Below, one piece after another: positions 1 to 39,723 of a stretch of 39,723 nt of DNA; position 1 is the first letter of the stretch, and each line of letters starts with the position of its first letter. The stretch comes from a virus: the UHGV virus genome UHGV-0092790; one strand, 5' to 3'. Position numbers and translations under genes: made by a program. The notes beneath the pieces are model-generated. The model did no database searches, was not told the origin of the DNA, and saw only the letters and a program-made list of their open reading frames with translations.

Positions 1-6
1 GATTGC

Positions 7-78
7 TCTTTCATTGGTTCTTTCTTTTGCTCTTTCATTGGTTCTTTCTTTTGCTCTTTCATTGGTTCTTTCTTTTGC
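7..78. repeat. 3 perfect tandem copies of a 24-bp unit (tctttcattggttctttcttttgc) at the window edge
   Basis: Read directly from the sequence: 7-30, 31-54 and 55-78 are identical. On the minus strand the unit translates in one frame as AKERTNER and in another as QKKEPMKE, which contains an ATG. The array may extend beyond position 1. Confidence 0.9.
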
Positions 79-166
79 TTTTCAAAATCCTAATGCGAAC
101 ATCAGGCTAAAGTAGATCAGTAGTCCAAAAATAATTATAATCGCATCGATAATTATTTTTTGAATT

Positions 167-1423
167 TTATTTTTTATATTCTTCATATTTCTTTATGAGT
201 TTTTTTAGATGTTCGGTTCTAGCGTTCTTTATTAGATAGTTCTGCAAAAACAATCTAATATTTATTAAATCGGCTTTATATAGATTTTGTTCTTCAACTG
301 AATATTTATAAATATGATAACAAAAATCTAAAATGGATTTTATAGCAACAGAATCAACAGTACCTTTTCCGCGCCTAAATTCTACCGTTTTATTGTTTGT
401 GAAATTTAGTTCAAGGTATCTTGAGTCGCAATAAGGTTGAAATATTTTTTCCAACCCTAATTCTGATGCCGCACTTGGATGGACGCCATACTCCATTAGT
501 CTTCGTATTTGCGGATCTGCTATGCAGTACCCTCCATTTTCCCTTCCAAAAAGTTCAGTAATAAAATCATACGGAAAACAGTAAAATGCCTTTTTTAGCA
601 AAATACAAACTTTTTTATTAAAATTAATTTTAGACAAATGTATGTGAAATCCTGTTTCTGTAGCCTTTTGCGAATAACAAGAAAAGCGAGGCATGAAATC
701 TTTTGTTAATATGTCAATTCCTCCTCCTTCTTTAATGAGTTCGTCGAAAGTCATTGGAATTGTCGTTATTTCTGCACCGCCTTTCTCATCAGAAAGGCTT
801 CCGTCATGCTGAATGTAAAAGAAATTTGATGTATTATTAAAAATGTATTTATTTCGTGCATATATTTCTAGCTCCAATCCAACAAGCGGTTCTTTTAGAA
901 CATCATTGTTAGGCTTGGACCATTCACTAGGAAAATAGTGATAATTTCTCATCTGCGTCGATATAAAAACATTTGGAATGTCTGGATGTTCAAAAACATC
1001 TTTGTCAAAATTCAAGGTAGGGATGACATATTCTGTGAGATATTCGATGTTGTGCTCATTTAGTCTTTCCCATAAAATATTTTCTACGAAAAAACTTAGG
1101 ACTTTCACATATTCCTTGGAATATGTTTTATATAAAAATAAATCAGGCGTTAGATTTATTTTATTTTTCAACAGTTTATTTAGTTTAATCATATCAGAAT
1201 TTTTGATTAGTCTAATGTTTTTTTTCCCGTAAACACACCCTCTAAAATTTCTCTCTCCGATATATTTCAAGAAAGCTGTTGTTTTTCTTCTAGCCTTTGC
1301 CAAGAATGCCGCATCGATATTTTTGTACGATGCGTTAGAATATTCTTTATTGAGAATTTCTTTGTAATTTTTTCTAACAAAAGCGAATAATAGTTCCAAA
1401 GATTTTTTTTCTTTTGCGTTCAT
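167..1423 (-). CDS. carboxylate-amine ligase (glutamine-synthetase-like amidoligase; GCS2/YbdK-like or Amidoligase_2-like)
   Basis: A 418-aa ORF carries an E-x-E beta-strand motif (PLVGLELEIYA) followed by a G-x-H-x-H motif (TGFHIHLS). These have the order and style of the two signature motifs of E. coli YbdK (FTLGIELEMQVV ... GQHVHVG). Called from motifs only, with no search. Confidence 0.5.
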   Translation of the reverse strand: MNAKEKKSLELLFAFVRKNYKEILNKEYSNASYKNIDAAFLAKARRKTTAFLKYIGERNFRGCVYGKKNIRLIKNSDMIKLNKLLKNKINLTPDLFLYKTYSKEYVKVLSFFVENILWERLNEHNIEYLTEYVIPTLNFDKDVFEHPDIPNVFISTQMRNYHYFPSEWSKPNNDVLKEPLVGLELEIYARNKYIFNNTSNFFYIQHDGSLSDEKGGAEITTIPMTFDELIKEGGGIDILTKDFMPRFSCYSQKATETGFHIHLSKINFNKKVCILLKKAFYCFPYDFITELFGRENGGYCIADPQIRRLMEYGVHPSAASELGLEKIFQPYCDSRYLELNFTNNKTVEFRRGKGTVDSVAIKSILDFCYHIYKYSVEEQNLYKADLINIRLFLQNYLIKNARTEHLKKLIKKYEEYKK

Positions 1424-1427
1424 TGTT

Positions 1428-2003
1428 TTAAAAAATAATACGGTTGTTGTTGTTTTTGTTGTTTATTCTAGAATAAACTTCCCACAATTCTTCCACATGT
1501 TGTCGTGAATCGTGAAGTTTTAGGAAAAGTTCTTGTGACAAATTTATGAGTATTCCTTGTTTATTAAGATTTGTTGCACAATGTCGATAATATTTTAGCG
1601 CTAACTCCTTGTTAGAGGTGAAGCAACGTGTGTGTGGATAGCAAGATTTTAAACTAGTTCTTCCGTATTCTGGAAAATGTCCTAGAACTTGCTTTGTTTT
1701 GTATTCATACCAGTTGACAGGCTTAACTCCGACAAATAGGAAGCCTACATTGGGTCCGCCTCCAGTTTTACGCATTACAGGGATATATCCCAGCGTGTTA
1801 TCTTTTATTGTGTTAGGTGTTATATATTTTTCTATAATTTCGCCTGTTCTAGTATTTTCTAGTTCTAGAAAATATTTAATACTGATTGATTTTTTTAAAA
1901 ATTCAATCATCTTTTCGTTGTTTTCACTTTCTAACATAGTAGATACTAAAGGTGTTTTATTTCTACAAGTTAGATACATTTTAATTATATACATTGTATT
2001 CAT
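1428..2003 (-). CDS. hypothetical protein (191 aa), co-oriented with and 4 bp upstream of the amidoligase gene
   Basis: An uninterrupted ORF tightly packed against its neighbours in a minus-strand operon. It has a Gly-rich segment (RKTGGGPNVGFLFVG) and no recognisable family. Confidence 0.45.
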   Translation of the reverse strand: MNTMYIIKMYLTCRNKTPLVSTMLESENNEKMIEFLKKSISIKYFLELENTRTGEIIEKYITPNTIKDNTLGYIPVMRKTGGGPNVGFLFVGVKPVNWYEYKTKQVLGHFPEYGRTSLKSCYPHTRCFTSNKELALKYYRHCATNLNKQGILINLSQELFLKLHDSRQHVEELWEVYSRINNKNNNNRIIF

Positions 2004-2038
2004 TTTTTTTGTTTTTCTTATCCATTAAATAAAAAGTT

Positions 2039-2503
2039 TTATAGTTCTTTAAAAAGTAGTTGCGTATGTAGAATGTCCATTTTTTGTTTTTCTTCTCCTG
2101 TTTCGAGAAAAATCTTTAAATCAAGTTCAATGTTGTTTTTTAATAAACTAATATTTAGTTTATTGTCAACAGAATCAAGACCTAATGCAAAAGCGTCATG
2201 TTTATTATAAATTTCTTTTTTAAGTTCTGGGTAGGTGTAAATTACGAGTTCTTTTTTTATTAGTTTTGATAATGATCCGTAAATTAGCAATCCTTTAAAA
2301 TTCAATCCTTCAAACTCATCACGGAAAGTAAATCGATTCCCATGTCTTACAAAAATCAACGAATCTGGTTTTTGTAATTGTAGCCTCATTGCGGCTTTAA
2401 TAAATCCGAAAGAATAACCCTTTTTACAAACGCAGTATAAAAAGTTTTCCCCTTTTATTATTTTTGATACTTTGCCAAGAAAAAAGTCAATATCTCTTTT
2501 CAT
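2039..2503 (-). CDS. hypothetical protein (154 aa). It carries an internal LIYGSLSK segment with a weak resemblance to the YGSL/YGTL motif of gamma-glutamyl cyclotransferase (AIG2-like) proteins
   Basis: The ORF sits in the operon. The motif resemblance is weak and the motif is not N-terminal as it is in canonical GGCT proteins. Confidence 0.4.
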   Translation of the reverse strand: MKRDIDFFLGKVSKIIKGENFLYCVCKKGYSFGFIKAAMRLQLQKPDSLIFVRHGNRFTFRDEFEGLNFKGLLIYGSLSKLIKKELVIYTYPELKKEIYNKHDAFALGLDSVDNKLNISLLKNNIELDLKIFLETGEEKQKMDILHTQLLFKEL

Positions 2504-2786
2504 TTAGTTCTAATGTTTTAAAATTAAACCTATATTCTTTATTTTCCATTAGCGGGCATTTCCGAAAATCGCTAATCAAATCGCCTTCCGGACGGCTTTC
2601 TATCCTGAAAATCAATCTCCTAGGGTGCTTGTTTGCGATAAAAACTTCGACGATTGAACCTATCCTCCAATCACTCTTTATTGCGGAAAAAAAGCACCTT
2701 AACCCATGATTGAAATTTAGATACAATACAGGAAAGATCCGCCTTTCTTCATGCGGGTTTTCGAACTCAAATTGATAAACTTTCAT
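2487..2786 (-). CDS. hypothetical protein (99 aa)
   Basis: An ORF in the same-strand operon that overlaps the downstream gene by 17 bp. Confidence 0.4.
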   Translation of the reverse strand: MKVYQFEFENPHEERRIFPVLYLNFNHGLRCFFSAIKSDWRIGSIVEVFIANKHPRRLIFRIESRPEGDLISDFRKCPLMENKEYRFNFKTLELNEKRY

Positions 2787-2789
2787 TTC

Positions 2790-3119
2790 TTAAAAAGAAG
2801 AATAATTGATAAGTACTTCTTGCGGTAAAATGACTTTAGATTGGAATGATATTCCAATAATCGGCAATATTGTTTTTACCTCTTTATCAACTCTAAAAGC
2901 TTTTTTCTTCATGAGGCAAATATAGGAAAACTCTTCAAATCCAGCATCAATTAGCATGCATTTAAGCATTTCTCTTTCAAAAAAACCACACATTGGCTTT
3001 TTAAGCTCATAAATAATTTCATCTTCCTTTGTTTCTCCTAGTTTTCTTTTTATATTTATTTTTGTTTTTTGGCGCAAAAAACAACTTAAACAACCGTATG
3101 TATCAATTATTTTTTTCAT
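2790..3119 (-). CDS. hypothetical protein (109 aa)
   Basis: An ORF whose end overlaps the upstream gene by 4 bp (ATGA-type coupling). Confidence 0.45.
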   Translation of the reverse strand: MKKIIDTYGCLSCFLRQKTKINIKRKLGETKEDEIIYELKKPMCGFFEREMLKCMLIDAGFEEFSYICLMKKKAFRVDKEVKTILPIIGISFQSKVILPQEVLINYSSF

Positions 3120-3415
3120 TTTGAGAAAATATAAGTTTCGGATTTGTGGTAAGTGTGTGAATATCGTACCGTTTCCGCATATCTATTTCTATACGTAAAA
3201 ATATCACTCACTGGTTTTTTTTTTCTTTTTAAGTCTTCAATATGTTTAAATTCAGGCAAAGTGAATATATTAAAAATTCCTTTCAAAATATCTTTTTTTT
3301 CACGTTTTTTGAAAATTCCTATAAAAAATGTTTGTTTGTTTTTCAGTGTGGCAATGAGGCAAAACTCATCATTTTTGATGTGGTTCCAAATCTCGACTGT
3401 ATATTCCGTTTTCAT
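3116..3415 (-). CDS. hypothetical protein (99 aa), Lys-rich
   Basis: An ORF in the minus-strand operon. Confidence 0.45.
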   Translation of the reverse strand: MKTEYTVEIWNHIKNDEFCLIATLKNKQTFFIGIFKKREKKDILKGIFNIFTLPEFKHIEDLKRKKKPVSDIFTYRNRYAETVRYSHTYHKSETYIFSK

Positions 3416-3455
3416 TGCATGTTATAATTGATATAATAAAAAAGTTCACTAGGAG

Positions 3456-3692
3456 TTAATCGATCAAGGAGAAGACGAGTTGAGCACGCTCTCCCTTTTT
3501 GAAAAAAACACGTCCGGGAATATGTAAAAATACTCCGAATCTGTATTCATAAAAATAACAAGTTGCCTTTTCTAGCATTTTTGCCATTTCTTCACTGCAT
3601 CCTGTTTGTGCGTAATCGCTCAAACCCCCTAGCATGCGTTTCCGCACGTTTTTCAGTGTGGGATTCCTTGTTTCCTCTTTGTTGTATCTCAT
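3456..3692 (-). CDS. hypothetical protein (78 aa), first gene of the minus-strand block
   Basis: An ORF adjacent to the divergent intergenic region. Confidence 0.35.
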   Translation of the reverse strand: MRYNKEETRNPTLKNVRKRMLGGLSDYAQTGCSEEMAKMLEKATCYFYEYRFGVFLHIPGRVFFKKGERAQLVFSLID

Positions 3693-3739
3693 TGTTTTTT
3701 TGTTTTGTTAAATAATAAGTTTTCCTTTAATGCTAAAAG

Positions 3740-4065
3740 CCGTTGTATAGTTCCCTCTTTCGTTTATCTCTCTTATTGCCTTTCGCTTCAACGGCAATAC
3801 CTCGAAAAACGGATATCTTTCTTTCTCTTTTCCTTGTGTTCCTTTCATGCCTTTATAATATCTTTTTTCTCTCATTTGTCAATAGCTTTTTATTATTTTT
3901 TTCTCTCATGAACGTCTTTTTTTTCTCTCCCTCCCTCTCTCTTCCTCTCTTCCCTTTTGTCTTCCTTTTTCCTTCGGGGGGGGCCTTTGGGGGGGGGTTA
4001 CGCTCCCTCTTCCTCCCTGTTTCTTCTCCCTCTTTCTCGCGGCGGGGGTTTTGTTGGGTGTAATG
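3740..4065. repeat. polypyrimidine (CT-rich) low-complexity tract on the plus strand, ending in poly-G runs (G8 at 3976-3983 and G9 at 3989-3997)
   Basis: Read directly: ctctccctccctctctcttcctctcttccc ... ttcggggggggcctttgggggggggtta. The ORFs called here (3743-4063 on plus, 3853-4137 and 3998-4324 on minus) translate to low-complexity polypeptides. Confidence 0.85.
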
Positions 4066-4849
4066 GATAATCACGTCGAACGGGACTAACCAGCTTGCCC
4101 TCCCTCCTCCTAAATCCTCCTCCCTCCTGGCGATCAAATGAGTTCATCATTGGATTTTTCGAAAAAAAGGCCATTTCCTGGCATTTTGGCGTAAGTCGTT
4201 GATAAAGTGTGCGCTTAGCTAGGACGGGAAAACCCCTAATGCTTGTTGACAGATTTTCAATTTTGTGCATTCCCGGTTGCCGCATTGTCAAGCTTGCCTC
4301 TAAAAAAGCGGGCAAGGGCGGCAACCCTCAAGTACCAAGTTGCGGTTACTATTCCGCTTGACGAGGGCGATTTTTGCACCGTTATCGGTAAAACGCAACA
4401 GTTTTTTTTAGTGGAGCGTGCGCTTCCTGCGTGTAATCTTCATAACTCATTGATACTCTATCATACTTCGCATAACACACATAATGCCAAATCGAGGGCC
4501 ATAGAGGTCGACCTTGAATAACGCACTGCAAGCCACCTAGCACGCGCCGCATTTCCCGGACGATATGTGTATCGGCTCACCTCTCAAAAGGCCCGTACAA
4601 GCCAACCTCGCAAGCCGTTTTTCGGGCAAATCGTAGTAATTAGAATAATTATTGAGGTTTTGCCCACTTTAGGCCATGTTGCGGCGTTGCTTCGGAGCCA
4701 CCTAGCCATGAGGGACTGCAAGCCCGTCAGCACCGCACCACCCCTAGGTGCTTGGTGTGCTGCCATGCCATACAGGGGGCGCCGGGGAAAAGTCGCGGGT
4801 GTTTTGCGCTGGACAAAGAAGGTATCACGCAGTGTAATAGGAAAAAAAG
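4066..4849. other. about 0.8 kb ORF-free core of the divergent intergenic region, roughly 50% GC. It is a candidate replication origin, packaging site or promoter region
   Basis: No ORF of 110 aa or longer lies here. The region sits between a minus-strand block on the left and a plus-strand block on the right, immediately upstream of the lysis and terminase genes. Confidence 0.4.
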
Positions 4850-5003
4850 AAAAAGAGAAAGGAGAAAACGTAGTTTGTTAGAGAAAAAGGAAAAAATAGT
4901 ATGTATAAAGAGAAAAGGAAGTTGATATGAGAGAAGAAGAGGGAAGAGGAAGAAAGAAAGAATAAAAAAGAAAGAAAGAAGGAGAAAGGAGAAGAAGAGA
5001 GAG
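4850..5003. repeat. polypurine (GA-rich) low-complexity tract on the plus strand, mirroring the CT tract at 3740-4065
   Basis: Read directly: ggaaaaaaagaaaaagagaaaggagaaaacg ... aagaaagaaagaaggagaaaggagaagaagagagag. Confidence 0.85.
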
Positions 5004-5438
5004 ATGACGGGAAAAGAGCAGATGGAAGAGTTGTGTAAGGAGTTGAGAGAAGAGCTTAGGAGTGGAGTGATAAGGGGATTGGGAGAGGGATTAGCGAGGC
5101 GAGGGATGAGTCAGGCGATATTCAAGCGGATGGGAGGGCCGGAGGTATGGGCGAGGGTGAGCAAAGGAAGAGAGAGAAGAGAAGGAGGAGAGGGGAAAAA
5201 GGAGGAAGAGGGAGAGTTGAAGAAGGGAGAGCTGTGTGAGTTTTTAAGCAGGGTGATAAGAGGTGGGGAGCTAGGGATGAGTGGGAAGGAGAAGATGAGT
5301 GCTGTGGGGTTGTACATGAGGTTGAAGGGGTGGGACAAGGTGAAGGAGAAGGAGGAAGAGATGGTAGGGGAAGAGTTGGTAGAGCTGTTAGGAGGGAGAA
5401 AGGGAGTCGGAGAGAAGAATGATACGGAGGAAGGTTGA
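5004..5438 (+). CDS. hypothetical E/K/G/R-rich low-complexity protein (144 aa). It may be an artefact of the T-depleted strand
   Basis: The ORF lies on a purine-rich strand where stop codons are depleted. Some segments are not low-complexity (AIFKRMGGPEVWARV, LYMRLKGWDKV). Confidence 0.25.
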   Translation: MTGKEQMEELCKELREELRSGVIRGLGEGLARRGMSQAIFKRMGGPEVWARVSKGRERREGGEGKKEEEGELKKGELCEFLSRVIRGGELGMSGKEKMSAVGLYMRLKGWDKVKEKEEEMVGEELVELLGGRKGVGEKNDTEEG

Positions 5439-5473
5439 CAGAGGGAATAAGGATGAAATAAAGTAAAGACGGA

Positions 5474-6181
5474 ATGAGAAAGAACAGCGAAGGCGAGCTA
5501 AGAGTGAGGAGAGCGGAGGCGGAGCGAGGATTTCTGGCAGGGGTGAAGGAGATGGTGAAGATGAGAGCAGAGATGGGAGTGATGCCGTGGGGGAAGCATG
5601 TATTTTATCCAAGGATGTTGCACAAGGCGAGGCCGCAGAAGGTGAGTGATTTTTTAGTAGATGATGAGAGGTGGTATTTGAGTGTGAGGGAGGAGGATAT
5701 GGAGAAATGGTGTAGTAAGCATCATTTGAACCGGAGTGCTAGTGGGAAGTATTATTTGGGTTTATTGTTTAAGAGTACAAAATCGAGGAGTGTGAGGAGG
5801 AAGATAAGCCTTGGGACGAAAGACGAGGAGGTAGCGAAAGAGCGGAGGGAGTTGTTTTATGAGGAGTGGGAAGGGAAGCATCTGACATGGGCGCAATGTG
5901 AGGGAGCGAAGTGGAACATGAAGGTGTCTGGGTGTGCGGCGATAGGGAGCAAGAGTGCGTTGGAGAGGAAGGCGAGGGAGAAGCAGGAGAAGGCGAACCG
6001 GGAACAGGCTAAGGCAATATGCAAGGAGTTGGCATTAAAGCGAAAGGCGCAGGTAAAACTGGAAGGATTTAAAAAGAAGACGGAAGAGTTAAAGAGGAGG
6101 AGGGTGTTGATGGTAGGAGGTGTAGAGAAAATAGGAGACGCCGTAGTAAGGAGGACGAAGAGAAAAGGAGTGGAAAGGTAA
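5474..6181 (+). CDS. hypothetical basic protein (235 aa) with a K/R/E-rich C-terminus
   Basis: The ORF's N-terminal half is not low-complexity (HVFYPRMLHKARPQKVSDFLVDDERWYLSV ... SGKYYLGLLFKSTKSRSVRRKISLGTKDEEVAKERRELF). It uses the same purine-rich codons as the confident amidase and terminase genes downstream. Confidence 0.35.
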   Translation: MRKNSEGELRVRRAEAERGFLAGVKEMVKMRAEMGVMPWGKHVFYPRMLHKARPQKVSDFLVDDERWYLSVREEDMEKWCSKHHLNRSASGKYYLGLLFKSTKSRSVRRKISLGTKDEEVAKERRELFYEEWEGKHLTWAQCEGAKWNMKVSGCAAIGSKSALERKAREKQEKANREQAKAICKELALKRKAQVKLEGFKKKTEELKRRRVLMVGGVEKIGDAVVRRTKRKGVER

Positions 6182-6186
6182 AAGCT

Positions 6187-6387
6187 ATGAAAGAAAAAGA
6201 AGTAGGAATAATGGTAAAAGAGAAGAAGGAAGGAGGGTTGGAACTGCATTTGTTTCCGAGCAAGGAGGCAATGGCAAGGTGGCGAGGGGAGGACAGCGAG
6301 CATGACGTAGAGGGGCGGTATCAGGAGTGGGTATTGCCAGTAGAGGTATTGGAAGACCTTTGGGCGGCGGCGCAAGGGGAAGAGTAA
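6187..6387 (+). CDS. hypothetical small protein (66 aa)
   Basis: An ORF on the purine-rich strand. Support is weak. Confidence 0.2.
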   Translation: MKEKEVGIMVKEKKEGGLELHLFPSKEAMARWRGEDSEHDVEGRYQEWVLPVEVLEDLWAAAQGEE

Positions 6388-6519
6388 AGTTTTTTTAAAA
6401 CGTCCGGTGCAAGTGGCATCCTCAAATAACAAACAAACAATAGAAGTTGGGTGGAGGCGAGGAGGCGTGGTGCGCGAACCGCTACGTCCCGGACGGCCTA
6501 TGCCCAGCAAAGGGAAAGT

Positions 6520-7080
6520 ATGAAAATAATCGTAGATATAGGGCATGCCCGGAAGACGGGAGCGGAAGGGAATGGATTGGAAGAGCATGAGGTATCATGC
6601 GTAGTAGCGGGCTATCTGGTGGAAGAGTTGGGAAAACTTGGCCATGAGGTATTGGAGTTGGACTTTCCGAGGATGAGCAATGCGGCAGACTTGAACGAAA
6701 CGATAAAGGCGGCGAATGCGTCTGGGTACGAGGCAGGAGTATCGTTGCATTGCGACAGCGCCAGTAAAATTGTAGGAGGCAAGGAGGTATTGAATCCGGA
6801 GCCTCATGGGGCGCATGTATGCTTTTATCCGAGTAGCGTAAAAGGGGCACGGCTGGCGAGTGCGATAGCAGGAGAGCTGTGTGTATTGTTGCCGGGGAGG
6901 GCAAACAAAGTGCAGGGGCGAGCGAACCTTGCGATATTGAGGAAAACGAAGATGCCGTTTGTATTGTGTGAGTGTGGATTTATAAGCAACCCGGAGGACG
7001 CAGAGGTGATGAGGAGGCGGCCAAAGGAAATAGCGGAAGCAATAGCGAAAGGAGTGGACGCCTATGCGAGAGGAAAGTGA
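6520..7080 (+). CDS. N-acetylmuramoyl-L-alanine amidase (Amidase_3 family), the probable endolysin
   Basis: From the internal Met, the protein reads MKIIVDIGHA...GAEGNGLEEHE...VSLHCDS...LCECGFISNPEDAE. These match the Zn-binding His/Glu/His and the C-terminal E-x-GF-ISN signature of Amidase_3 cell-wall amidases. I moved the start from the track's 6451 to the ATG at 6520. Confidence 0.8.
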   Translation: MKIIVDIGHARKTGAEGNGLEEHEVSCVVAGYLVEELGKLGHEVLELDFPRMSNAADLNETIKAANASGYEAGVSLHCDSASKIVGGKEVLNPEPHGAHVCFYPSSVKGARLASAIAGELCVLLPGRANKVQGRANLAILRKTKMPFVLCECGFISNPEDAEVMRRRPKEIAEAIAKGVDAYARGK

Positions 7081-7474
7081 GGAGGCAATGGACAAAGAGG
7101 CAGTAGGAGAGTTTGTTGACAGCATCGTAATGGCCCCCGAAAGGGGAGGTGTTGACGAGAAGGCAGAGGGATTTGTGTGGGTATTGAGGAGCAAGAACAA
7201 GTTTTTGGTAAGGGAGGGGAAGAAGGACAGGAGTGGGCAAAGGTGGAAGCGGAAGCCTGAATACGCTTACATGTACTACCGAGGGATGATGGCAGGAGGG
7301 GTGCAGAAGGAAGCATCGTGCCTGTTATCGGAGGCGAAGGTGTTTGACCTGCCGTTGCCTAGGAGGAAGTATAACACGGAGGTTTGGGATGTTGTGAGGT
7401 GCAGGCTTATTGAGGAGGCAGTAGAGGAACCGATATATAGCGAAGCGGAAGCGTTGATAAAGTTTAACCGTTAG
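7064..7474 (+). CDS. putative terminase small subunit (136 aa), called from position only
   Basis: A small acidic and basic protein immediately upstream of the large terminase, ending 3 bp before it. It has no diagnostic motif. Confidence 0.3.
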   Translation: MREESEEAMDKEAVGEFVDSIVMAPERGGVDEKAEGFVWVLRSKNKFLVREGKKDRSGQRWKRKPEYAYMYYRGMMAGGVQKEASCLLSEAKVFDLPLPRRKYNTEVWDVVRCRLIEEAVEEPIYSEAEALIKFNR

Positions 7475-7476
7475 TT

Positions 7477-9057
7477 ATGGAAGTAAGCGAGATAGCCAAG
7501 TTGTTGAAAGACCCGATGTGGAGGATATCGCATTTGTATGAGATAAAACTCACGGACGGGAACATCATACCATACAAGCCGAGGAAGTTTCAGGAGGAGT
7601 TGCATCGTGCGTGTTACTGTGAGGGGAAGCGTCGTTTTTTGATACCAAAGAGTAGGCGTCAGGGGTGTTCTACGGCGATAGGGGTGATGATGGCAGACAT
7701 GGCGGCTTTTGAGGAGGGGTGGAAACTGGCGTTGGTGGACAGGACGCTGGGAGACGCAAAGGAAAAGCTGACGGACATTGTGAAGGTAGCCTTGGACAGT
7801 TTGAAGCGGAAATTACCGGGGTTGTTTGAGATAAGCTATTTCCAGTCCCGCATCATAGTGAAGATGACAGGGAGGAGGGCCAGCGAGATAGTTGGCGGTA
7901 AATATTTCCGAGGTAGTGGACTTGGTTTTGCCCACATATCAGAGCTTGGTACCATAGCGACGAGCGAACCGAAGCGAGCGGCAGAAATAGTAAACGGCAC
8001 ATTCCCTGCGGCCAAGGACGGCTTTATATTCGTAGAGACGACGGTACGAGGGGGGAAGCGAGGGGTATTCTACGAAAACGTAATGAATGCGTTGAGCGTG
8101 CCGGAGGAGGAGCGTGGGGATAAAGATTTCCATGTGGTATTTTTGCCGTGGTGGAGTGACGAGAATAATATATCGGAGGGGGTGGAGGAGATAACGCCAG
8201 CTACGGAGAGCTACTTTGAGACGCTTAGGAGCAAGAGCGGGATTGTCGTGACGGAGGCGCAAAAGCGTTGGTGGCAACAGGCCAAGAGGCAACACGGGGT
8301 GTCAATGAATGAGGAATACCCTTCGACCTTGGAAGAGGCTTTTGAGGTTCCGATGGAGGGGGCCATATTGGAGGCGGTGTTGGACAAGGCAGTACAGGAG
8401 GGTGCTTTTCGGAAGTTGGCCTATGACGCAACAAAGCCATGCTATTGCACATGGGACTTGGGAGCGCCGCTGAACACGATTAACCTTGTATTCCAGCTGG
8501 ACGGCCCCTTTATTAACGTCCTTGAGCTGGACAGTGGTTTGCATGCGAGCGAGCGCGTAGCAGAGCGTGTAACGAGGCTTAAAAGCAAATATCCGACCTT
8601 ACAGGCGAACTTCCTTCCGCATGACGGCGGGTATATGACGGACACAGGGATGACACAGGCGCAAATGTGGCAGGAGGCAGGGTTGCCGGGCATCCAGTTG
8701 TTGCCCAAATCGAAAGACAAATGGATTGGCATCAATTACCTTTTAGGGATGTTCAACATGTTTCGGTTTGACACCAACGGTACGAGCAAAGCGTACAGTT
8801 ACTGGTTGTCCTACAGGTGCAAGCCGGAGGTGGGAGAGGGAGGCGTGTTTAAGAATGAGATTGTACATGACAACGCATCCCATTGGGCAGACCCGTTGAG
8901 GTATGTAGCGGAGGCGAAAATGAACAATTTGCTTGTGCAAGGTCCAACAACCCAAGACTATAAGGCAGGAATAACATGTACATTTGGGAAATATCATCGT
9001 GAGCGAAACATTGGACATAACTGGCGAGGACGGTTTGAGCGTACTTTCCGAATCTGA
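7477..9057 (+). CDS. terL: terminase large subunit
   Basis: A 526-aa protein with a Walker A box (PKSRRQGCST) of the terminase type [KR]-x-RQ-x-G-x-S/T. Its C-terminal RNase-H-like nuclease segment carries acidic motifs (CTWDLG ... LPHDGG ... WADPLRY). Its size and its position upstream of a portal-sized gene fit. Confidence 0.85.
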   Translation: MEVSEIAKLLKDPMWRISHLYEIKLTDGNIIPYKPRKFQEELHRACYCEGKRRFLIPKSRRQGCSTAIGVMMADMAAFEEGWKLALVDRTLGDAKEKLTDIVKVALDSLKRKLPGLFEISYFQSRIIVKMTGRRASEIVGGKYFRGSGLGFAHISELGTIATSEPKRAAEIVNGTFPAAKDGFIFVETTVRGGKRGVFYENVMNALSVPEEERGDKDFHVVFLPWWSDENNISEGVEEITPATESYFETLRSKSGIVVTEAQKRWWQQAKRQHGVSMNEEYPSTLEEAFEVPMEGAILEAVLDKAVQEGAFRKLAYDATKPCYCTWDLGAPLNTINLVFQLDGPFINVLELDSGLHASERVAERVTRLKSKYPTLQANFLPHDGGYMTDTGMTQAQMWQEAGLPGIQLLPKSKDKWIGINYLLGMFNMFRFDTNGTSKAYSYWLSYRCKPEVGEGGVFKNEIVHDNASHWADPLRYVAEAKMNNLLVQGPTTQDYKAGITCTFGKYHRERNIGHNWRGRFERTFRI

Positions 9058-15234: not shown

Positions 15235-18200
15235 ATGGCCTCAAATACCCGGCAATTTCAAATGCAACTCAACTTCAACGGGGGGCAGGTTTCCGAGAAC
15301 TTCACCCCACGAGTTGACATGCAGAAATACCAGACAAGTTGCTCTGTGATAAGAAACTTCATTCCCAGACAGTTCGGCATGTTAAAGAGGCGTCCGGGAT
15401 TTGGTTTTGTTGACAGCTTTAAAAATCCTTTTCGGATATTAAAATTCCCTTGTACCAACAACGAGGAATATATTGTCTGCGTACACTCTGACAACAAATA
15501 TGAGAGCGGAGGATGCAAGCCATTTGCGACCATTTATCAATGCGGATATTTTGGAGACCAGACTAGAAGGTGGGAAGTAAATCTTGATATAGACCCCGTA
15601 TTCATGCCGGGGGTTAATGGCTGGACTGCGGACAGTTCTTCTGAAAGGCATGGTAGGTTTTGGGATACGGACTTAGCTAAAATCAAATATGTATCTCAAA
15701 ACGACAAGATGTGGATAGTGCATCCTGATTTCTTCCCTCTGGAATTAACAAGGACGGCGAAGCCAGTACAACTTCAGCAGACGTCGATGGCAGAGGACAA
15801 GTATGTTGTTGAGTTCGACACCTCCTCAAACACGAATCTTTCCACAAAAAACTCTTTGTGTTTTGGTTTGTATGGCGTTAATAGGCTAAATGCAAAAACA
15901 CAACCTTTCTTTACCTTAAACTTTAAGGACAACAAATCTATTGCTTTTGGTTTTAGCGGTAGTGGCGCCGATACGAAGTGGGCTATAACTACTTCGGATG
16001 GAGTTGTACATCAACTGGAAAACATTGGCGTTAGCTCTGACCAGACTGTAGATTTTAGCGATTTTAATAAAAACACACCTATCAACATTTATTGCTTCCT
16101 GACGTGGCGAGGAAACAAGCTTTACGCAAGCATAGGGTGTAATAACAGTTATGGAACGTTAGGCCTCTATAAGTATTCCTCCTCCGAAGTCGAGGTTGAT
16201 TCTTCTTTGGGCAACTTGTTAAGTTTTGTTATTGGGGGAACTCCGGGGAGTTCGACCGATGCTCAATCTTATGTTTCTTTCAAAGAAACCTTTAGTGCTG
16301 GTTCAGATTTTAGCGGCATTGGGATTAAAGTGAATTTTGGACAAGGAGATGTGCCTGATAAAAGCTTTAATAACAACGACCACAGGACGTCGCTAATAAT
16401 GGCTCAAATGTTTGGAGACACTTCGAGTGTGTTCAAGCTTAATGATTATCAAATCCAGCAATACAATAATTCCGTTTTCCCCATTAAGCGGATATACGAG
16501 AGCGGCACAAATATTTACACGGAAGAAACTGTCATTGAGTTCAAGTTGACGACGATGGACTTTCTGAATTATCCGAAGAGCGACGACTACTATATAAGGG
16601 ATAAAAGCCAAGGAACTAATCCTGATAGTCCCATGTTTTGTAGGAACCATGAGACATGCCCGGATATTCCCTATTACGTTTATGAGGACACCAGCTTCCC
16701 CTTAAACACTATCAACGCTGTTTTTGGGGACAGGTATTTCCTTTCTGATGGTTCCGTCCCGCAATTAACAGGCAACGATGGGACTCAAATTGCCGAGTGG
16801 TTAAAAGAATATACTCCGGGGGATATTGTTATCGGCTCCTGCCTGATGAACAAAACGGACGGCGTATTGAATGGGAACATATACAATTTCTCCACTGGCT
16901 CCAACGTCGGCATTCCCATTAACTTCTTTAGGATGGCAAACATCGTATGCCGCTACGTTCGAGGCGACTGGACTCTTAGAACAGACGCAGAAGTGGCGAC
17001 AAACAAAGGGGTTCTTGTAAGTTATTTGGAGAATAGCAAGGTCTTTTCAGGCTATCCTTCTGGCGGCGGCTACACAGTCTTCCGAATCAACAATAACTGG
17101 TTCTCACAGCCGAGGAAGCTTAGCATGTCGGGAAGCAACACTCCGGGCGTATTTGTTGGGCTTGTTTATATTGGTGAGAACGGAACTGTATCTACTGATA
17201 CTGGTGATGCTGGCCAGTCCATTGAGGTTGATAATAGTAGCGGAGCTTACCATACAGACATCCCCTTTTCTGTGTGGCCTAATCAGAAAAGGCTCACATC
17301 CACCACTACTGATGCGACGGTATTCCAGAACCTGACCATTATGCCGTTGATGTATGCTCCTGTGCTGGATGTTATATTTGAAAATTTTTCATCTAATTTC
17401 GGCAGAGGGAACTACCAGATAACCCAAACCAACATTAGTGCCACAAATTACTATTCGGCTAAATTCAATGACTTGGTGAAGTGCGCCTTTTCTGTAGAGA
17501 AAGGCTATCCTTCCTGCATATCGTTGCGCAACGGACGTTTGATTTTAGCCTCTACGAAGTCCCAGCCGCAGACAATATGGGCATCCCGTGTTGACAGGTA
17601 TAATGAGTTCTCTGTGGACGATATGGCAGATTCCGGCTGGGATTTGACGATAGGTGCGAACCAGAGCCAAAAGATTCAATGGTTGTCTTCCTCTAAGGAT
17701 TTGATAGTAGGAACAGACATTGGCGAATGGGTGCTGAACGACAGCGACTCAAGCAATCCTGTACCCATTATTAAAGAGCAATCCAGATGGGGTTCTTCTG
17801 TGGCGCAAGGGGAACTGATGACGGAGAGCCTGTTTTTCATCCCTAGAGACAAAAAGGGTGTTATCCAGACAATCTACTCTTTCCAGATTGATGGCTACAC
17901 AGCGGAAGATGTGACGATTATGGCATCCGATTTGTTTGATTATGGGATTACTTCTCATTCGATTCAGAAAGACCCTGACCCAATCTGGTGGGGTACTACT
18001 GGCGACGGAAGGCTTTTAGGGTTGCTGTATAACCGGGTGCAGGACATCAATGGCTGGTTCCAATGCGACATTCAAGGGTGCGACATAAATCAGGTTTGCT
18101 GTTACAATAACACGGTAAAGGGAGAGGAAGGTTTGGCTGTCTCTATTCAAGGAGAGGGCGGTAGCAACTTGGTAAACGCTAATCAATATTTTCTCGCCTT

Positions 18201-19527
18201 CATGGAGGATAGTAATCCCTGTGTAGATTTATTCTCCACGGGGAGTACGACCGATTCAGACGCGCTTAATACAGGGGGATTTGACCCGATGAGATGGGAT
18301 TTATTCTCCACGGGGAGTACGACCGATTCAGACGCGCTTAATACAATTCTAGTCAATGGGTACTTCAAAGAAACGACTAGTAGTGAACAAGTTACGATTC
18401 AGACAAAACCAGCTGACACTCAATCCTGGGCATCAAAATTTTATTTTACCTTCGATGACGCTTCTGTTTTCAATAATCCGGCGGCTAATGGTAGCTCTGT
18501 TGAGATAACAGCATTCCTTTTTGAGAATCAATATGACCCTTCTCTAAGCCAATTACCCAAGGGGCCGTTTTATTTGTTTGTGTACGATTCAGAGACACAA
18601 GCATTATTAGCTCGCTCAAACAACTCGGTAGAGCTTCCTGACGATAAGAACCAGCTTCCTATTCTTGAGTTCCTGTTTAGCGGATTAACTGTAAACGCTA
18701 ACCAGAAAATAAAGGTTTTCTTCTCAAGCAATGAATCAGCCTCCTTTGAAGGGAATGAAGAAATATTACAGGTTTCCTGTTTTAGTGATTCTACCCATGA
18801 GACGGAATACGGATATTTCCCGTATATGGATGTCCGCACAACTGTATTGAATTCCAAGATTGAATATGACGAAACCAAGCCTGTTTATCTGGATGTCATA
18901 TCGGCAGTTGGTGAAACGACAACAGGTTATTGCTTTGGCGGGAATGATATAAATAATAATTATTCTTATTATCGTCCATCACCAGAAGGGGAAGGCTTTT
19001 TTTCCCAAAGCAAAATTGTGTTCAATGTTACAGGAGAAATTGAATCGCAAAAAGGGGAAGTCCCAAACGCTGGATTTGTTGGTAGCCCAACTTCGTTGAC
19101 CAGTGTTTTCCCTAACTTCGTTTTCGGGCTTCACATCTTTTCAGAGTTTGTGTCGATGCCGATGGGGAATGCTAACAATTACGTCATCCCGGCAACCACC
19201 ACCAAGATTAGCCAACTGCGCTATCAAGTATCACGGGATGAGGGCAACGACGTAACTCCTTCATCTTCATTTCTTAGTGATGACGGTCTGGCTTATGGTG
19301 CGCCAAGGATTCAGGCCACAGTTCAGGCATTGGACTATGATGCCCCGATAGCTATGGAAAAGAGCACTTCCATGTCGGTATCAACAAACTTGTCTAACGG
19401 GAGAGACCATATTGTATTGAGTGGACAAAGCTCTACAGATACAAGACTGTACTTTTCCTTAGATGATGCTAAAAAGGTGAACGTATTAGCGGCGTATATT
19501 CTGTATGATTCCACTATCATTAGCTGA
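15235..19527 (+). CDS. large tail protein (1430 aa), a candidate nozzle, tailspike or receptor-binding protein
   Basis: A very long ORF in the structural module. It is rich in Gly, Ser, Thr and Asn and contains a perfect internal tandem duplication (see the repeat at 18226-18345). Confidence 0.5.
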   Translation: MASNTRQFQMQLNFNGGQVSENFTPRVDMQKYQTSCSVIRNFIPRQFGMLKRRPGFGFVDSFKNPFRILKFPCTNNEEYIVCVHSDNKYESGGCKPFATIYQCGYFGDQTRRWEVNLDIDPVFMPGVNGWTADSSSERHGRFWDTDLAKIKYVSQNDKMWIVHPDFFPLELTRTAKPVQLQQTSMAEDKYVVEFDTSSNTNLSTKNSLCFGLYGVNRLNAKTQPFFTLNFKDNKSIAFGFSGSGADTKWAITTSDGVVHQLENIGVSSDQTVDFSDFNKNTPINIYCFLTWRGNKLYASIGCNNSYGTLGLYKYSSSEVEVDSSLGNLLSFVIGGTPGSSTDAQSYVSFKETFSAGSDFSGIGIKVNFGQGDVPDKSFNNNDHRTSLIMAQMFGDTSSVFKLNDYQIQQYNNSVFPIKRIYESGTNIYTEETVIEFKLTTMDFLNYPKSDDYYIRDKSQGTNPDSPMFCRNHETCPDIPYYVYEDTSFPLNTINAVFGDRYFLSDGSVPQLTGNDGTQIAEWLKEYTPGDIVIGSCLMNKTDGVLNGNIYNFSTGSNVGIPINFFRMANIVCRYVRGDWTLRTDAEVATNKGVLVSYLENSKVFSGYPSGGGYTVFRINNNWFSQPRKLSMSGSNTPGVFVGLVYIGENGTVSTDTGDAGQSIEVDNSSGAYHTDIPFSVWPNQKRLTSTTTDATVFQNLTIMPLMYAPVLDVIFENFSSNFGRGNYQITQTNISATNYYSAKFNDLVKCAFSVEKGYPSCISLRNGRLILASTKSQPQTIWASRVDRYNEFSVDDMADSGWDLTIGANQSQKIQWLSSSKDLIVGTDIGEWVLNDSDSSNPVPIIKEQSRWGSSVAQGELMTESLFFIPRDKKGVIQTIYSFQIDGYTAEDVTIMASDLFDYGITSHSIQKDPDPIWWGTTGDGRLLGLLYNRVQDINGWFQCDIQGCDINQVCCYNNTVKGEEGLAVSIQGEGGSNLVNANQYFLAFMEDSNPCVDLFSTGSTTDSDALNTGGFDPMRWDLFSTGSTTDSDALNTILVNGYFKETTSSEQVTIQTKPADTQSWASKFYFTFDDASVFNNPAANGSSVEITAFLFENQYDPSLSQLPKGPFYLFVYDSETQALLARSNNSVELPDDKNQLPILEFLFSGLTVNANQKIKVFFSSNESASFEGNEEILQVSCFSDSTHETEYGYFPYMDVRTTVLNSKIEYDETKPVYLDVISAVGETTTGYCFGGNDINNNYSYYRPSPEGEGFFSQSKIVFNVTGEIESQKGEVPNAGFVGSPTSLTSVFPNFVFGLHIFSEFVSMPMGNANNYVIPATTTKISQLRYQVSRDEGNDVTPSSSFLSDDGLAYGAPRIQATVQALDYDAPIAMEKSTSMSVSTNLSNGRDHIVLSGQSSTDTRLYFSLDDAKKVNVLAAYILYDSTIIS
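18226..18345 (+). repeat. perfect 48-bp direct repeat (18226-18273 and 18298-18345) with a 72-bp period, inside the 1430-aa gene
   Basis: Read directly: gatttattctccacggggagtacgaccgattcagacgcgcttaataca occurs twice. It encodes DLFSTGSTTDSDALNT twice, 24 aa apart. Confidence 0.9.
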
Positions 19528-36658: not shown

Positions 36659-37579
36659 TTAAGCGTTTTCATTGTTTTCTTTCTTTTTGAATATTGGCGA
36701 TTCTGGCGACTTGTCTTCTTCATTGGAGAAAGCTTCGTCTTTACTTATGGCCCCGGTTTTAATGGCGTTGAAGAGACCAATAAGCATTACGATTTCAGAT
36801 TCCTTACTAGTCTCAATTTTGTGTTTAAGGTAAGCCTCAAGCATTTCTTTGGAGACTCCGATTTTGGAAAAGGCTATTACACATCCATTTATTCTTTCCG
36901 CAATGGGTGTATCTGTGGCTCTTAGCGTGTTTTGGCAAGCCTCTGCCGCCTCTTGCCTAATGAAGTCCGGCAATACCGCCCAAATGCACGCTCTGATGCG
37001 CCTAGAGGCCATATTAGCACAAAGTTCATAAATATCTCTATCGGATGTAAGAGGATATCCACCGTCTTTTGTGTCCCTGTAGTGCGGAACAGAAAAGGCT
37101 ATCTCCCTTCTTATGTTGTTTTCTTTATCCCAACAGAAAGCTATACAGTCGGAGCAAACCCTTCCTTTTTCATCTACATGTTCCCCTATCTTTCTCCACC
37201 CAGCTTCTGCGTTCCCATAAGCGGTAAGGCACGCATTTGCTAAATGGATTGTCTCTCCTGAAATACTAGAGCCTCCCCTTTTGTATTCGAAGAATGCGGT
37301 GTTAGCTAAATGACGGAACGAGCAAAGCTGTCTAATTTTGGAGGAAACCTCCATCATGTTTCTCGGCATTTGCTTTGCTATATATATAGAGGCAAGCGCC
37401 TCTAGCGATTCTTTGTTGGAAAGCACGTTAGCAAGCGGATTTCCAGCAAGAGGTGCTATCATGGACAAGCCTTCTGCCGGGACTGTGGTCAATTGTTCTG
37501 GGTTGTCTGACATGCCCTCATTGTATCTTTTCTCCCACACATGGCAATCTTTTTTTATTTTTTTTCTTGTGCATGTCAA
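36659..37579 (-). CDS. hypothetical protein (306 aa), possibly the single-strand annealing protein that partners the exonuclease
   Basis: The call rests on position only, immediately upstream of the exonuclease. I recognised no motif. Confidence 0.3.
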   Translation of the reverse strand: MTCTRKKIKKDCHVWEKRYNEGMSDNPEQLTTVPAEGLSMIAPLAGNPLANVLSNKESLEALASIYIAKQMPRNMMEVSSKIRQLCSFRHLANTAFFEYKRGGSSISGETIHLANACLTAYGNAEAGWRKIGEHVDEKGRVCSDCIAFCWDKENNIRREIAFSVPHYRDTKDGGYPLTSDRDIYELCANMASRRIRACIWAVLPDFIRQEAAEACQNTLRATDTPIAERINGCVIAFSKIGVSKEMLEAYLKHKIETSKESEIVMLIGLFNAIKTGAISKDEAFSNEEDKSPESPIFKKKENNENA

Positions 37580-37600
37580 AACATGTGGTACAAAAACGAC

Positions 37601-37987
37601 ATGACGAAAGCACTACCAACAGAACAATTAGAAGCATTCTCCAAGTTCGCCAATACTAACGAAGCCCTTTGCAAGCTCATGATGCAACGTGTGGGTTTCA
37701 ACATCACGCCAATGGTGTGGAATAAGGCCAAATGGATGCCTACACAACTTTCCGTAAAGAAGCTCACTAACCTTCGAGCTTTTTACCCAGAAGCATTTGG
37801 TTTAGAGGATGAACCTAATAAAGATTTTTTGAAATCTCTTTATTACCTCCACATTTCAAATAGAACCTTCTCTGGGGAAATTACGCCACTAATTGAGGAC
37901 AAGGATTTTATTACCCATATGCCCTATGCTAACTTTGTTTTGCCCATTGACGATTTCACAAAAAACGCCCTTTCCAAATTCATGTAA
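37601..37987 (+). CDS. hypothetical protein (about 128 aa)
   Basis: I placed the start at ATG 37601 to avoid overlap with the divergent minus-strand gene. Confidence 0.4.
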   Translation: MTKALPTEQLEAFSKFANTNEALCKLMMQRVGFNITPMVWNKAKWMPTQLSVKKLTNLRAFYPEAFGLEDEPNKDFLKSLYYLHISNRTFSGEITPLIEDKDFITHMPYANFVLPIDDFTKNALSKFM

Positions 37988-37996
37988 AATAAGGAT

Positions 37997-38629
37997 ATGA
38001 ATCACCATTCCCATGACTATCCTTTAGAAGAAATGGAACGTATTTCTGAGCCGAAACTGGCAAAAGACATACTGAATTTAGAAGAACTATTGAAGAGATT
38101 AGATGAAATACCGCTAACAACAGAACAGGAAACGAAAGAATGGCGGCGAAAAGAAAAAGAAAAAGAACGCATAGCATCATGGAAAAAACGGTTGAGGCAA
38201 TCCGGCGTGCCTCAAGGGTTTTATGATGCTTGCGTGAATGGAAAGATCGACAAGAGCCGGATATTTCCATTCCTGAAAAACTTAAGTAGCGGGTGTTTAT
38301 TTGTCTGCACGCCGGAAAAAGGTAAAACCTTTTCCGCATGCGCTTTGATATCGCAGGAATTATGGAATGGCAGGTTAGCTTTTTACATGAAAGCTCCTGA
38401 ACTGGAAAGAGAAATGGCCAGTTATAAAAAGGATGCGCGCCTGATAAATAGAGCGCAATCAATCCCGCTCTTAGTGCTGGACGATTTTGAGGGAGTGCGG
38501 ATGAGTGCGAATTCATCCTCCGATTTTATCGCCTTGCTAAAAAAAAGAAATGATTTTAATTTTTTAACAATTTTGAATTCAAAAAAACGAACCTTTTTCC
38601 TCGAACAGATCGAAGAGGCGGTAAGTTAG
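37997..38629 (+). CDS. DnaC/IstB-like AAA+ ATPase, a putative helicase loader
   Basis: It has a Walker A-like motif (CTPEKGKTFSACALI) and a Walker B-like motif (PLLVLDDFEG) in the arrangement typical of DnaC/IstB. Confidence 0.5.
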   Translation: MNHHSHDYPLEEMERISEPKLAKDILNLEELLKRLDEIPLTTEQETKEWRRKEKEKERIASWKKRLRQSGVPQGFYDACVNGKIDKSRIFPFLKNLSSGCLFVCTPEKGKTFSACALISQELWNGRLAFYMKAPELEREMASYKKDARLINRAQSIPLLVLDDFEGVRMSANSSSDFIALLKKRNDFNFLTILNSKKRTFFLEQIEEAVS

Positions 38630-38656: not shown

Positions 38657-38701
38657 GTGTAATAAAAAACCACTGTAGCCTAAATAAAGGCTACAGTGGT
38701 T
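38657..38701. terminator. bidirectional intrinsic terminator between convergent genes
   Basis: A perfect 13-bp inverted repeat (aaccactgtagcc / ggctacagtggtt) is flanked by an A-run on the plus side, which gives a T-run for the minus-strand transcript, and by T-rich sequence after it. Confidence 0.65.
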
Positions 38702-39716: not shown

Positions 39717-39723
39717 AAAAGAG

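Follow-up and report, generated by a model that had tools for sequence, protein, structure and literature searches.

A cassette formed by an amidoligase gene and a glutaminase gene is routinely annotated in LUZ24-like phages, in phage tf, in the Methylophilales phages MEP401 and MEP402, in crAss-like phages and in many others. A phage system combining such a ligase with a class-II glutamine amidotransferase (GAT-II) and a gamma-glutamylcyclotransferase (GGCT) was reportedly predicted by Iyer and coworkers in 2009. The pair is uncharacterised, as had been stated in an initial annotation of the locus described here: no experimental study of it was found in the searchable literature, and a paper on OM43 phages published in 2023 describes its function as one that 'remains to be explored'. 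The locus in question lies in the viral genome UHGV-0092790, of which a stretch of 39,723 nucleotides was analysed (the window in what follows). It encodes a ligase of 418 amino acids and, at the opposite edge of the window, a glutaminase-type protein of 228 amino acids (p228), that is, the same two families, in the same order, on the same strand and in the same early or replication location, as the pairs of the cultured phages UFV-P2 (LUZ24-like), tf, MEP401 and MEP402.

Positions 167-3692, on which the initial annotation was centred, are probably most of a nine-gene unit of about 4.9 kb whose core would be its last three genes: a ligase-glutaminase cassette, which would form an amide at the expense of ATP and hydrolyse a gamma-amide, and the clade-specific gene inserted in it. 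The 418-residue protein had been proposed to be an amidoligase of the glutamine synthetase (GS)/GCS2 fold because of two signature motifs, and this assignment is borne out by profile searches, by an AlphaFold2 (AF2) model and by structure comparison with Foldseek. The protein alone matches the Pfam family Amidoligase_2 (PF12224) at E = 0.0036 (17.6 bits, for a gathering threshold of 22) and the PHROG family 2443, 'amidoligase', at E = 3e-6. A profile of the window's clade run against 1.84 billion representatives rendered 485 proteins at E <= 1e-3, including 38 at E <= 1e-10; only three representatives (40-50% identity) share the full length of the ligase, all others matching residues ~155-378, and further homologue searches with the ligase returned almost only its own clade or just seven proteins. 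A match to PF12224 at E <= 1e-3 was found in 83 of the 100 homologues tested. Twelve residues (E184, E186, D207, S209, E218, G258, H260, H262, R294, T346, E348 and R350) are invariant in an alignment of 100 sequences that are 17-50% identical to the window protein, and all twelve stay invariant in a set of 68 sequences from outside the window clade. They include the ExE and HxH signatures (E184-L-E186 and H260-I-H262) and a TxExR motif, and, by analogy with GS, the invariant residues would bind metal and ATP. The protein is predicted to form amide bonds in an ATP-dependent manner.

When aligned with its clade and 12 distant homologues, residues 140-418 were modelled by AF2 with a pLDDT of 91.7 and a pTM of 0.92; the full 418 residues with a clade-only alignment reached a pLDDT of 34. 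Foldseek ranked YbdK/GCS2 structures first (1TT4 and 1R8G, probability 1.00), followed by glutamine synthetases, GmaS, PafA, Dop and the plant glutamate-cysteine ligase (GCL). The comparison with viral models gave 56 matches at E <= 1e-3, of which the named ones are mostly called 'amidoligase', and included proteins of Pseudomonas phage tf, Salinivibrio CW02, Cellulophaga phi14:2 and crAss-like phages, as well as of Cronobacter, Arthrobacter and Mycobacterium phages, Atu_ph07 and one giant virus. At the sequence level, neither the profile of the clade nor that of the 100 sequences matched a PDB chain, and no match was found in 50,697 GenBank phage records for the ligase (tblastn), for window positions 1-4500 (blastn) or for p191, the product of the gene preceding the ligase (tblastn). 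For the first 150 residues of the ligase, relatives could be detected only within the clade. The N-termini of other family members are zinc-ribbon arrays or unrelated sequence; in the equivalent region, 45 of 136 representative homologues carry at least two CxxC motifs, which are zinc ribbons according to Pfam.

The gene at the other edge of the window, which had been described as similar to N-terminal nucleophile (Ntn) amidotransferases, encodes a protein that starts with Met-Cys (MCIIA) and whose family profile finds the glutaminase domain of GlmS (1XFF, E = 3.4e-10), PurF (5e-9) and the stand-alone class-II domains 1TE5 (4e-7) and 3MDN in the PDB, in keeping with that description. Met-Cys is located at the start of the open reading frame (ORF), or just inside it, in nearly all 81 ligase-adjacent homologues. 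An alignment of 36 homologues adjoining ligases has C2, H70, R72, G98 and D110 invariant and N97 in at least 90% of the sequences. HMMER aligned H-f-R-i-A-T-H-G over HTRWATHG and HNG over HNG of 1XFF, so that R72 and the oxyanion residues N97-G98 correspond to Arg73 and Asn98-Gly99 of GlmS; D110 corresponds to Asp123 by its motif position (SDT/SDS), just beyond the printed alignment. Judging from these residues, p228 appears to be a catalytically intact class-II Ntn amidohydrolase. It is well established for GlmS and PurF that the Arg binds the alpha-carboxylate of glutamine and the Asp its alpha-amino group. Because the conserved Arg and Asp of p228 imply a substrate in which both the alpha-carboxylate and the alpha-amino group are free, this would be glutamine or a gamma-linked glutamyl compound. 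In Pfam, 20 of the 36 homologues match GATase_4, three GATase_6 and one GATase_7, and p228 alone matches GATase_4 at E = 0.0028 (17.1 bits, for a threshold of 23); this is a family that we take to hold the stand-alone hydrolases of the YafJ/EgtC type.

Although they appear at opposite ends of the window, the two genes belong together. The exact 418-residue ligase was found on two further assemblies of ~39.8 kb (one human-gut metagenome), both of them circular permutations of the window, in which the ligase is followed by an ORF of 119 codons and then by the 228-residue gene. In assembly L001 the sequence ...GAGCAATC|CTCTTTTTTGCG... runs unbroken across the junction of window base 1 with base 39723, and its 39,850 nt equal 39,723 plus the 127-nt k-mer overlap of a k127 assembly. 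Since L001 crosses the junction and the lengths differ by exactly this overlap, the ends of the window are adjacent and the genome is circular, the 39,723 bp being a complete circular assembly. The concern that the ends might be non-adjacent flanks is thereby removed, and the ligase and the edge gene are on one strand within one predicted transcription unit, as had been anticipated for a circular genome. The source is an uncultured, podovirus-like phage of human-gut metagenomes, whose portal is at most 24% identical to any GenBank phage portal. The only hint of a host is a protein 80% identical to the window ligase (P0282), encoded on a phage-sized contig of 40,682 bp and labelled 'hypothetical protein [Veillonella sp.]' in NCBI and RefSeq (MBS6486253.1, WP_287508525.1).

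The pair formed by the two genes is widely conserved. A homologue of p228 directly downstream and on the same strand was found in 75 of 82 viral loci with a ligase homologue, four others ending too early and three lacking it, and the same arrangement was found in ~70 of 80 loci from bacterial genomes, mostly metagenome-assembled genomes (MAGs) of gut Clostridia in which the loci presumably are prophages. The two genes are adjacent or overlap in ~90% of the loci with room for both; among 149 adjacent pairs, in ~160 phage or prophage loci, the median gap is 20 nt on viral contigs and 1 nt on bacterial contigs, and in many loci the stop and start codons overlap. The pair is distributed over marine, soil, gut and jumbo phages and many Clostridia prophages. 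No third gene family travels with it, the other large clusters of neighbours being antisense shadow ORFs or terminase subunits. Because only the pair is conserved outside the clade, a case for a functional module can be made for the two enzymes, and the remaining genes of the operon are lineage-specific. In the window clade the order and strand are kept, with a gap of 414-551 nt that holds the 119-residue protein gene (p119). The cassette is also found in multiple copies: a 48-kb viral contig has two tandem ligase-glutaminase pairs (L013, 5614-9467), and a contig of 440 kb has, within 10 kb (L037, 901-10784), three ligases along with five genes of the glutaminase type, of which two are devoid of the N-terminal Cys.

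How could the two enzymes act together? In the version that we tentatively prefer, as a possibility rather than as a probability, they would form a split glutamine-dependent amidoligase. The ligase would use ATP to convert a carboxylate into an acyl-phosphate, which it would join to the nitrogen of an amine. Hydrolysis of the gamma-amide of free glutamine, or of that of a gamma-glutamyl compound, would be the task of the Ntn partner, and in this split enzyme the glutaminase would feed ammonia to the acyl-phosphate. A single heteromeric enzyme fits a two-gene cassette that has no other constant partner, and a glutaminase gene that is separate and yet abutting would be expected because a class-II enzyme needs a free N-terminal Cys, so that it could not be fused downstream of the ligase. 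The N-terminal modules vary on a constant catalytic core, a pattern that points to a target of macromolecular or lineage-specific nature. The pair could act as one glutamine-dependent enzyme by which some macromolecule in the infected cell is amidated as a step of host takeover or counter-defence, which we consider somewhat more likely than the tagging with p119 discussed below.

Several observations weigh against this interpretation. The window ligase and the window glutaminase, each taken alone, are below the Pfam thresholds, and family membership rests on profiles and structure. The matches to GATase_4 fit a hydrolase at least as well as an ammonia donor, and the adjacency of the two genes agrees with either role. 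Translational coupling of the two enzymes is lost in the window clade as a result of the insert between them. Both signals at the borders of the unit are consensus matches, and for the phage cassette the substrate and product, as well as the direction in which the Ntn enzyme acts, are inferred.

It can also be the case, doubtful as it seems to us, that the cassette adds and trims gamma-glutamyl tags, the ligase linking an amine of a metabolite or protein to glutamate or to a gamma-glutamyl peptide and the Ntn enzyme removing or processing the tag. The logic of gamma-glutamyl ligation followed by processing by an amidohydrolase has precedents in EgtA/EgtC and PuuA/PuuD, and a peptide tag is reportedly also the idea of Iyer and coworkers. 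The structural neighbours of the ligase (YbdK/GCS2, GCL, GS, GmaS and PafA) form gamma-glutamyl bonds, the Arg and Asp of p228 would recognise a gamma-linked glutamyl group as well, the GATase_4 matches of the 20 partner homologues point the same way, and LUZ24-like phages add peptide-type ligases of the COOH-NH2_lig and ATP-grasp families around the pair. However, a ligase and a hydrolase of the same bond would make a futile cycle unless other steps intervened, and there is no third conserved gene; moreover, adjacency as tight as this, with overlapping codons in many loci, is rather what one expects for the subunits of a single enzyme, such as the split amidoligase would be.

The location of the cassette next to replication and recombination genes, both in the window phage and in MEP402, brings to mind a hypermodification of DNA bases, in which the pair would amidate or aminoacylate a modified base after replication and thus evade restriction. 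Amidoligase and glutamine-amidotransferase genes were found by Lee et al. 2021 (PMC8989533) to be co-associated with thymidine-hypermodification clusters in viral metagenomes, and the N-terminal zinc ribbons present in a third of the ligase homologues would also be consistent with this. On the other hand, neither a dUMP hydroxymethylase, a 5-hydroxymethyluracil (5-HMU) DNA kinase, an aGPT-pyrophosphorylase, DpdA nor a QueC-type protein was found among the ~45 window ORFs scanned, a negative that is not exhaustive because many of them are orphans, and most of the loci bearing the pair lack such neighbours. We therefore regard base modification as unlikely.

Equally improbable is a role in the cell envelope, where the pair would amidate or aminoacylate peptidoglycan or a surface polymer and, for instance, exclude superinfecting phages. 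In the peptidoglycan of Veillonella diamines are amide-linked to D-Glu, and this chemistry, together with the fact that Veillonella is the only hint of a host, would be in line with such a role. The envelope idea is repeated as a proposal in PMC10580990 and PMC11318856, which credit Iyer et al. 2009 with it in the case of phage phiEco32, and PMC3267633 describes MurT/GatD as a two-subunit, glutamine-dependent enzyme amidating a peptidoglycan carboxylate. Against it, no operon protein matched an envelope-related family in the family scans, a role in lysogenic conversion is not obvious since neither integrase nor repressor was found in the family scans made of the genome ORFs, and the host label comes from one protein of a binned MAG.

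Beyond the two enzymes, the seven minus-strand ORFs of the initial annotation are present where it had placed them (Table 1), with spacings of -17 to +40 nt. The operon is larger than the seven genes proposed, and comprises nine genes, one of them being p119, through which the window ends cut. The operon runs on the minus strand from p78 to the stop of the ligase at 167, and from there through p119, across the junction, to p228. Its described richness in AT also holds, the GC content being 0.30-0.33 over positions 1-4000 and 0.37-0.55 elsewhere. From a promoter-like site upstream of p78 to a predicted terminator hairpin beyond p228 there are 4,938 nt at 31.6% GC, whereas the remaining 34.8 kb have 46.0%, with 36.9% in their lowest 1-kb segment. 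The predicted nine-gene unit coincides in this way with a low-GC island, and its promoter and terminator are consensus matches; the number of promoter-like sites in the region is not above that expected from shuffled sequence, and the consensus is of the sigma-70 type, which may not be that of the host. The unit heads the replication/recombination arm of the genome, as its counterparts do in cultured phages, which agrees with the early-gene position suggested for it.

Table 1. Features of the nine-gene unit and of the rest of the UHGV-0092790 window
Feature	Coordinates	Strand	Remarks
Promoter-like site	3882-3855	minus	TTGACA-16 nt-TATTAT; 11/12 consensus matches; ~160 nt upstream of first gene
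p78, 78 aa	3456-3692	minus	No family match; clade-only; length varies, 34-aa insert in relatives; dN/dS 0.4
p99a, 99 aa	3116-3415	minus	No family match; clade-specific; dN/dS 0.4-0.7, closest pair 1.3
p109, 109 aa	2790-3119	minus	No family match; clade-specific
p99b, 99 aa	2487-2786	minus	No family match; strongly conserved in clade
p154, 154 aa	2039-2503	minus	Carries YGSL; dN/dS 0.3-0.56, two closest pairs 0.8-1.0
p191, 191 aa	1428-2003	minus	Ends 4 nt upstream of ligase start; most conserved protein of the unit
Amidoligase, 418 aa	167-1423	minus
Ligase N-terminal region, residues 1-149	977-1423	minus	Predicted helical, Lys/Arg-rich
Ligase catalytic domain, residues ~150-418 + stop	167-976	minus	GS/GCS2-fold, Amidoligase_2 family
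p119, 5' part	1-62	minus	Cut by window ends; encodes MKEQKKEP tandem repeat
p119, 3' part	39426-39723	minus	119 aa in total; clade-specific insert between ligase and glutaminase
p228, class-II Ntn glutamine amidotransferase-type amidohydrolase	38726-39412	minus	Cys2, His70, Arg72, Asn97-Gly98, Asp110
Predicted terminator hairpin	38668-38701		14-bp stem, 6-nt loop, minus-strand T-run; between converging stops of p228 and DnaC-like gene
DnaC-like loader	ends 38629	plus
PD-(D/E)XK/DUF2800 exonuclease and RuvC-like resolvase		minus
Portal, T7-type			PF12236, E = 1e-49
Major capsid protein			Phage_capsid_2 match
Amidase_3 lysin and tail-tip protein			Among window ORFs

All the ORFs of the unit can be taken as genes because of the ratios of nonsynonymous to synonymous substitution rates (dN/dS), estimated pairwise with orthologues from eleven related viral contigs plus later additions. 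These ratios are 0.04-0.13 for p191, ~0.09 for p99b, 0.16-0.32 for p109, ~0.2 for the ligase, ~0.15 for p119 and 0.11-0.17 for p228. The genes p154, p99a and p78 evolve fast, with values mostly of 0.3-0.7; in the closest pairs, which differ by few substitutions, values of 0.8-1.3 are reached. The seven small proteins p78, p99a, p109, p99b, p154, p191 and p119 are confined to the window's own clade, and no protein of the operon had a meaningful match with PADLOC and NCBIfam. We also observed that purifying selection on p191 and p99b is stronger than on the ligase, yet neither has a detectable homologue, fold or family outside the clade. For p191 there was no match in the PDB or Pfam and no homologue beyond the clade, and profile-profile comparison with the ligase and glutaminase families indicated no relation; p99b is kept (L011, E = 3e-46) in a relative whose ligase is only 40% identical.

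The possibility that p154 is a GGCT/AIG2 protein, raised by a faint YGSL motif, was considered and rejected. The motif is literally present, at residues 75-78, but it is in the middle of the protein rather than N-terminal, it is not conserved within the clade (YGGI in L005), and nothing else in p154 resembles GGCT: no Pfam family was found at E <= 1, a profile of eight orthologues found no GGCT in the PDB, and the sole PHROG match was to an unrelated family of unknown function (E = 0.019).

The small upstream ORFs had been thought to be part of the ligation system, which is not supported by these results, since all six are found in the clade only and the pair is conserved over ~160 loci with no constant third partner. 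Their products are early proteins particular to this clade, for which no functional connection with the enzymes was found. Tight packing on one strand, low GC content, a single predicted promoter and terminator, and the retention of the gene set in relatives whose ligase is 40-46% identical might indicate that all seven to nine genes form one ligation machinery including a GGCT-like cyclotransferase, but this is very unlikely, given that no homologue of the small proteins was found beside any other Amidoligase_2 gene, that p154 has no GGCT signal, and that phages as a rule transcribe unrelated early genes together.

The gene inserted between the two enzymes deserves separate consideration. The N-terminus of p119 consists of an MKEQKKEP repeat, which is encoded by an array at 3-84 with 3.5 copies of a 24-nt unit. 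The relatives have from 0 to ~7 copies of repeats of this type, always with length steps that are multiples of 12 or 24 nt, and, since such an array probably breaks assemblies, it may explain why contigs L005, L008, L011 and L173 end just after the ligase. The C-terminal residue of p119 is Gln in 19 of 19 orthologous copies, although the three residues that precede it vary (EKKQ, TKNQ and TNKQ). No recurrent insert similar to p119 was found in other ligase-glutaminase loci with wide gaps. A tagging mechanism resembling pupylation could be imagined, in which the C-terminal Gln of p119 would be deamidated by the Ntn enzyme, and the Glu so formed would be joined to lysines of target proteins through the GS-fold ligase; p119, with its variable Lys/Glu-rich repeat tail, would in the early phase of infection be conjugated to proteins of the host or the phage, a variant that we hold to be highly improbable. 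The ligase is related to PafA and Dop, an amidohydrolase is present, the gene for the small protein lies exactly between them, and p119 is under purifying selection. We nevertheless give this mechanism hardly any credence, because p119 is found in one clade only while the enzyme pair is universal, the invariance of a single residue means little among orthologues at least 80% identical, no Gly-Gly precedes the Gln, Asp110 of p228 points to a substrate whose alpha-amino group is free, unlike that of a C-terminal residue, and UFV-P2 has an HNH endonuclease at the position of p119, so that insertions there may be incidental.

The unit and the rightward genes are separated by a divergent intergenic stretch of ~875 nt poor in ORFs (3693-4566). 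A CT-rich tract with two runs of G8-9 (3816-4040) is mirrored by a GA-rich tract (4830-5000), and the core between them (4040-4830) gave no Rfam match and no RNA folding better than that of shuffled sequence. The intergenic stretch 3693-4566 could contain an origin or regulatory sites. At the other side of the unit, a two-gene island on the plus strand (37541-38629), with a 148-codon ORF and the DnaC/IstB-like loader, lies inside the otherwise minus-strand early/replication arm and converges on the terminator hairpin that it has in common with the glutaminase gene. Further to the right of the unit, positions 5000-8000 have an extreme plus-strand purine skew (GC skew 0.4-0.7, AT skew 0.17-0.29), and the ORFs 5004-5438 and 5474-6181 encode proteins rich in Glu, Lys, Gly and Arg with no family match. 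An ORF of 1430 codons (15235-19527), also with no family match, contains a tandem repeat of 35 nt in three copies with 62% match (18226-18336). Neither tRNA genes nor Rfam families were found in the window.

Knowledge of the product of the pair would close a gap that recurs in the maps of phage genomes, and could bring to light a modification of cell wall, protein or nucleic acid that is new. To this question the window contributes a lineage of the cassette that is very divergent and abundant in the human gut, a structure of the catalytic core modelled with confidence, and a quantification indicating that the conserved unit is the two enzymes and not their neighbours. Because the window phage is uncultured and its host uncertain, LUZ24, tf and MEP402 are better entry points for work on the cassette.

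By structure, the closest to the window ligase is YbdK/GCS2 (1R8G, 1TT4), which like the ligase has a minimal GS fold devoid of the N-terminal beta-grasp domain of GS, although the identity is 13-15% and the N-terminal region differs. To our knowledge, YbdK is not paired with an Ntn glutaminase. Such a combination, of a ligase with GS/GCL fold and a stand-alone class-II Ntn amidohydrolase that acts on a gamma-glutamyl intermediate, is found in EgtA and EgtC of mycobacterial ergothioneine synthesis, where three more enzymes work between the two steps; the phage pair has no other conserved partner. MurT/GatD follows the same two-subunit logic, with a ligase-type subunit that activates a carboxylate and a glutaminase that supplies ammonia. 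MurT has the Mur-ligase fold and GatD is a class-I (triad) glutaminase, whereas the phage pair combines a GS-type fold with a class-II glutaminase. The Pup/Dop/PafA system shares with the window a small Gln-ending protein encoded between the enzyme genes. The phage locus has, however, an Ntn amidohydrolase instead of a second GS-fold protein, p119 lacks GGQ and is present in one clade only, and no proteasome genes were found among the window ORFs scanned. What is shared with Pup-type systems is therefore the ligase fold and the C-terminal Gln of p119, and we do not count the locus among them.

The nearest relatives are the pairs of the cultured phages. The amidoligases of tf and of many other phages match the window ligase in structure, and gp07 of MEP402 is 30% identical to p228. 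On the other hand, the window ligase is too divergent from those of the cultured phages to be detected by tblastn or to reach the Pfam threshold, the glutaminase of UFV-P2 has 486 residues and that of the window phage a minimal 228, and the window has no COOH-NH2_lig, ATP-grasp or GGCT partner. The 150-residue N-terminus of the ligase and the inserted 119-residue gene are unique to the window clade. With its unique ligase N-terminus, minimal glutaminase and inserted gene, the locus is a highly divergent copy of the amidoligase-glutaminase cassette of these phages, and not a new type of system.

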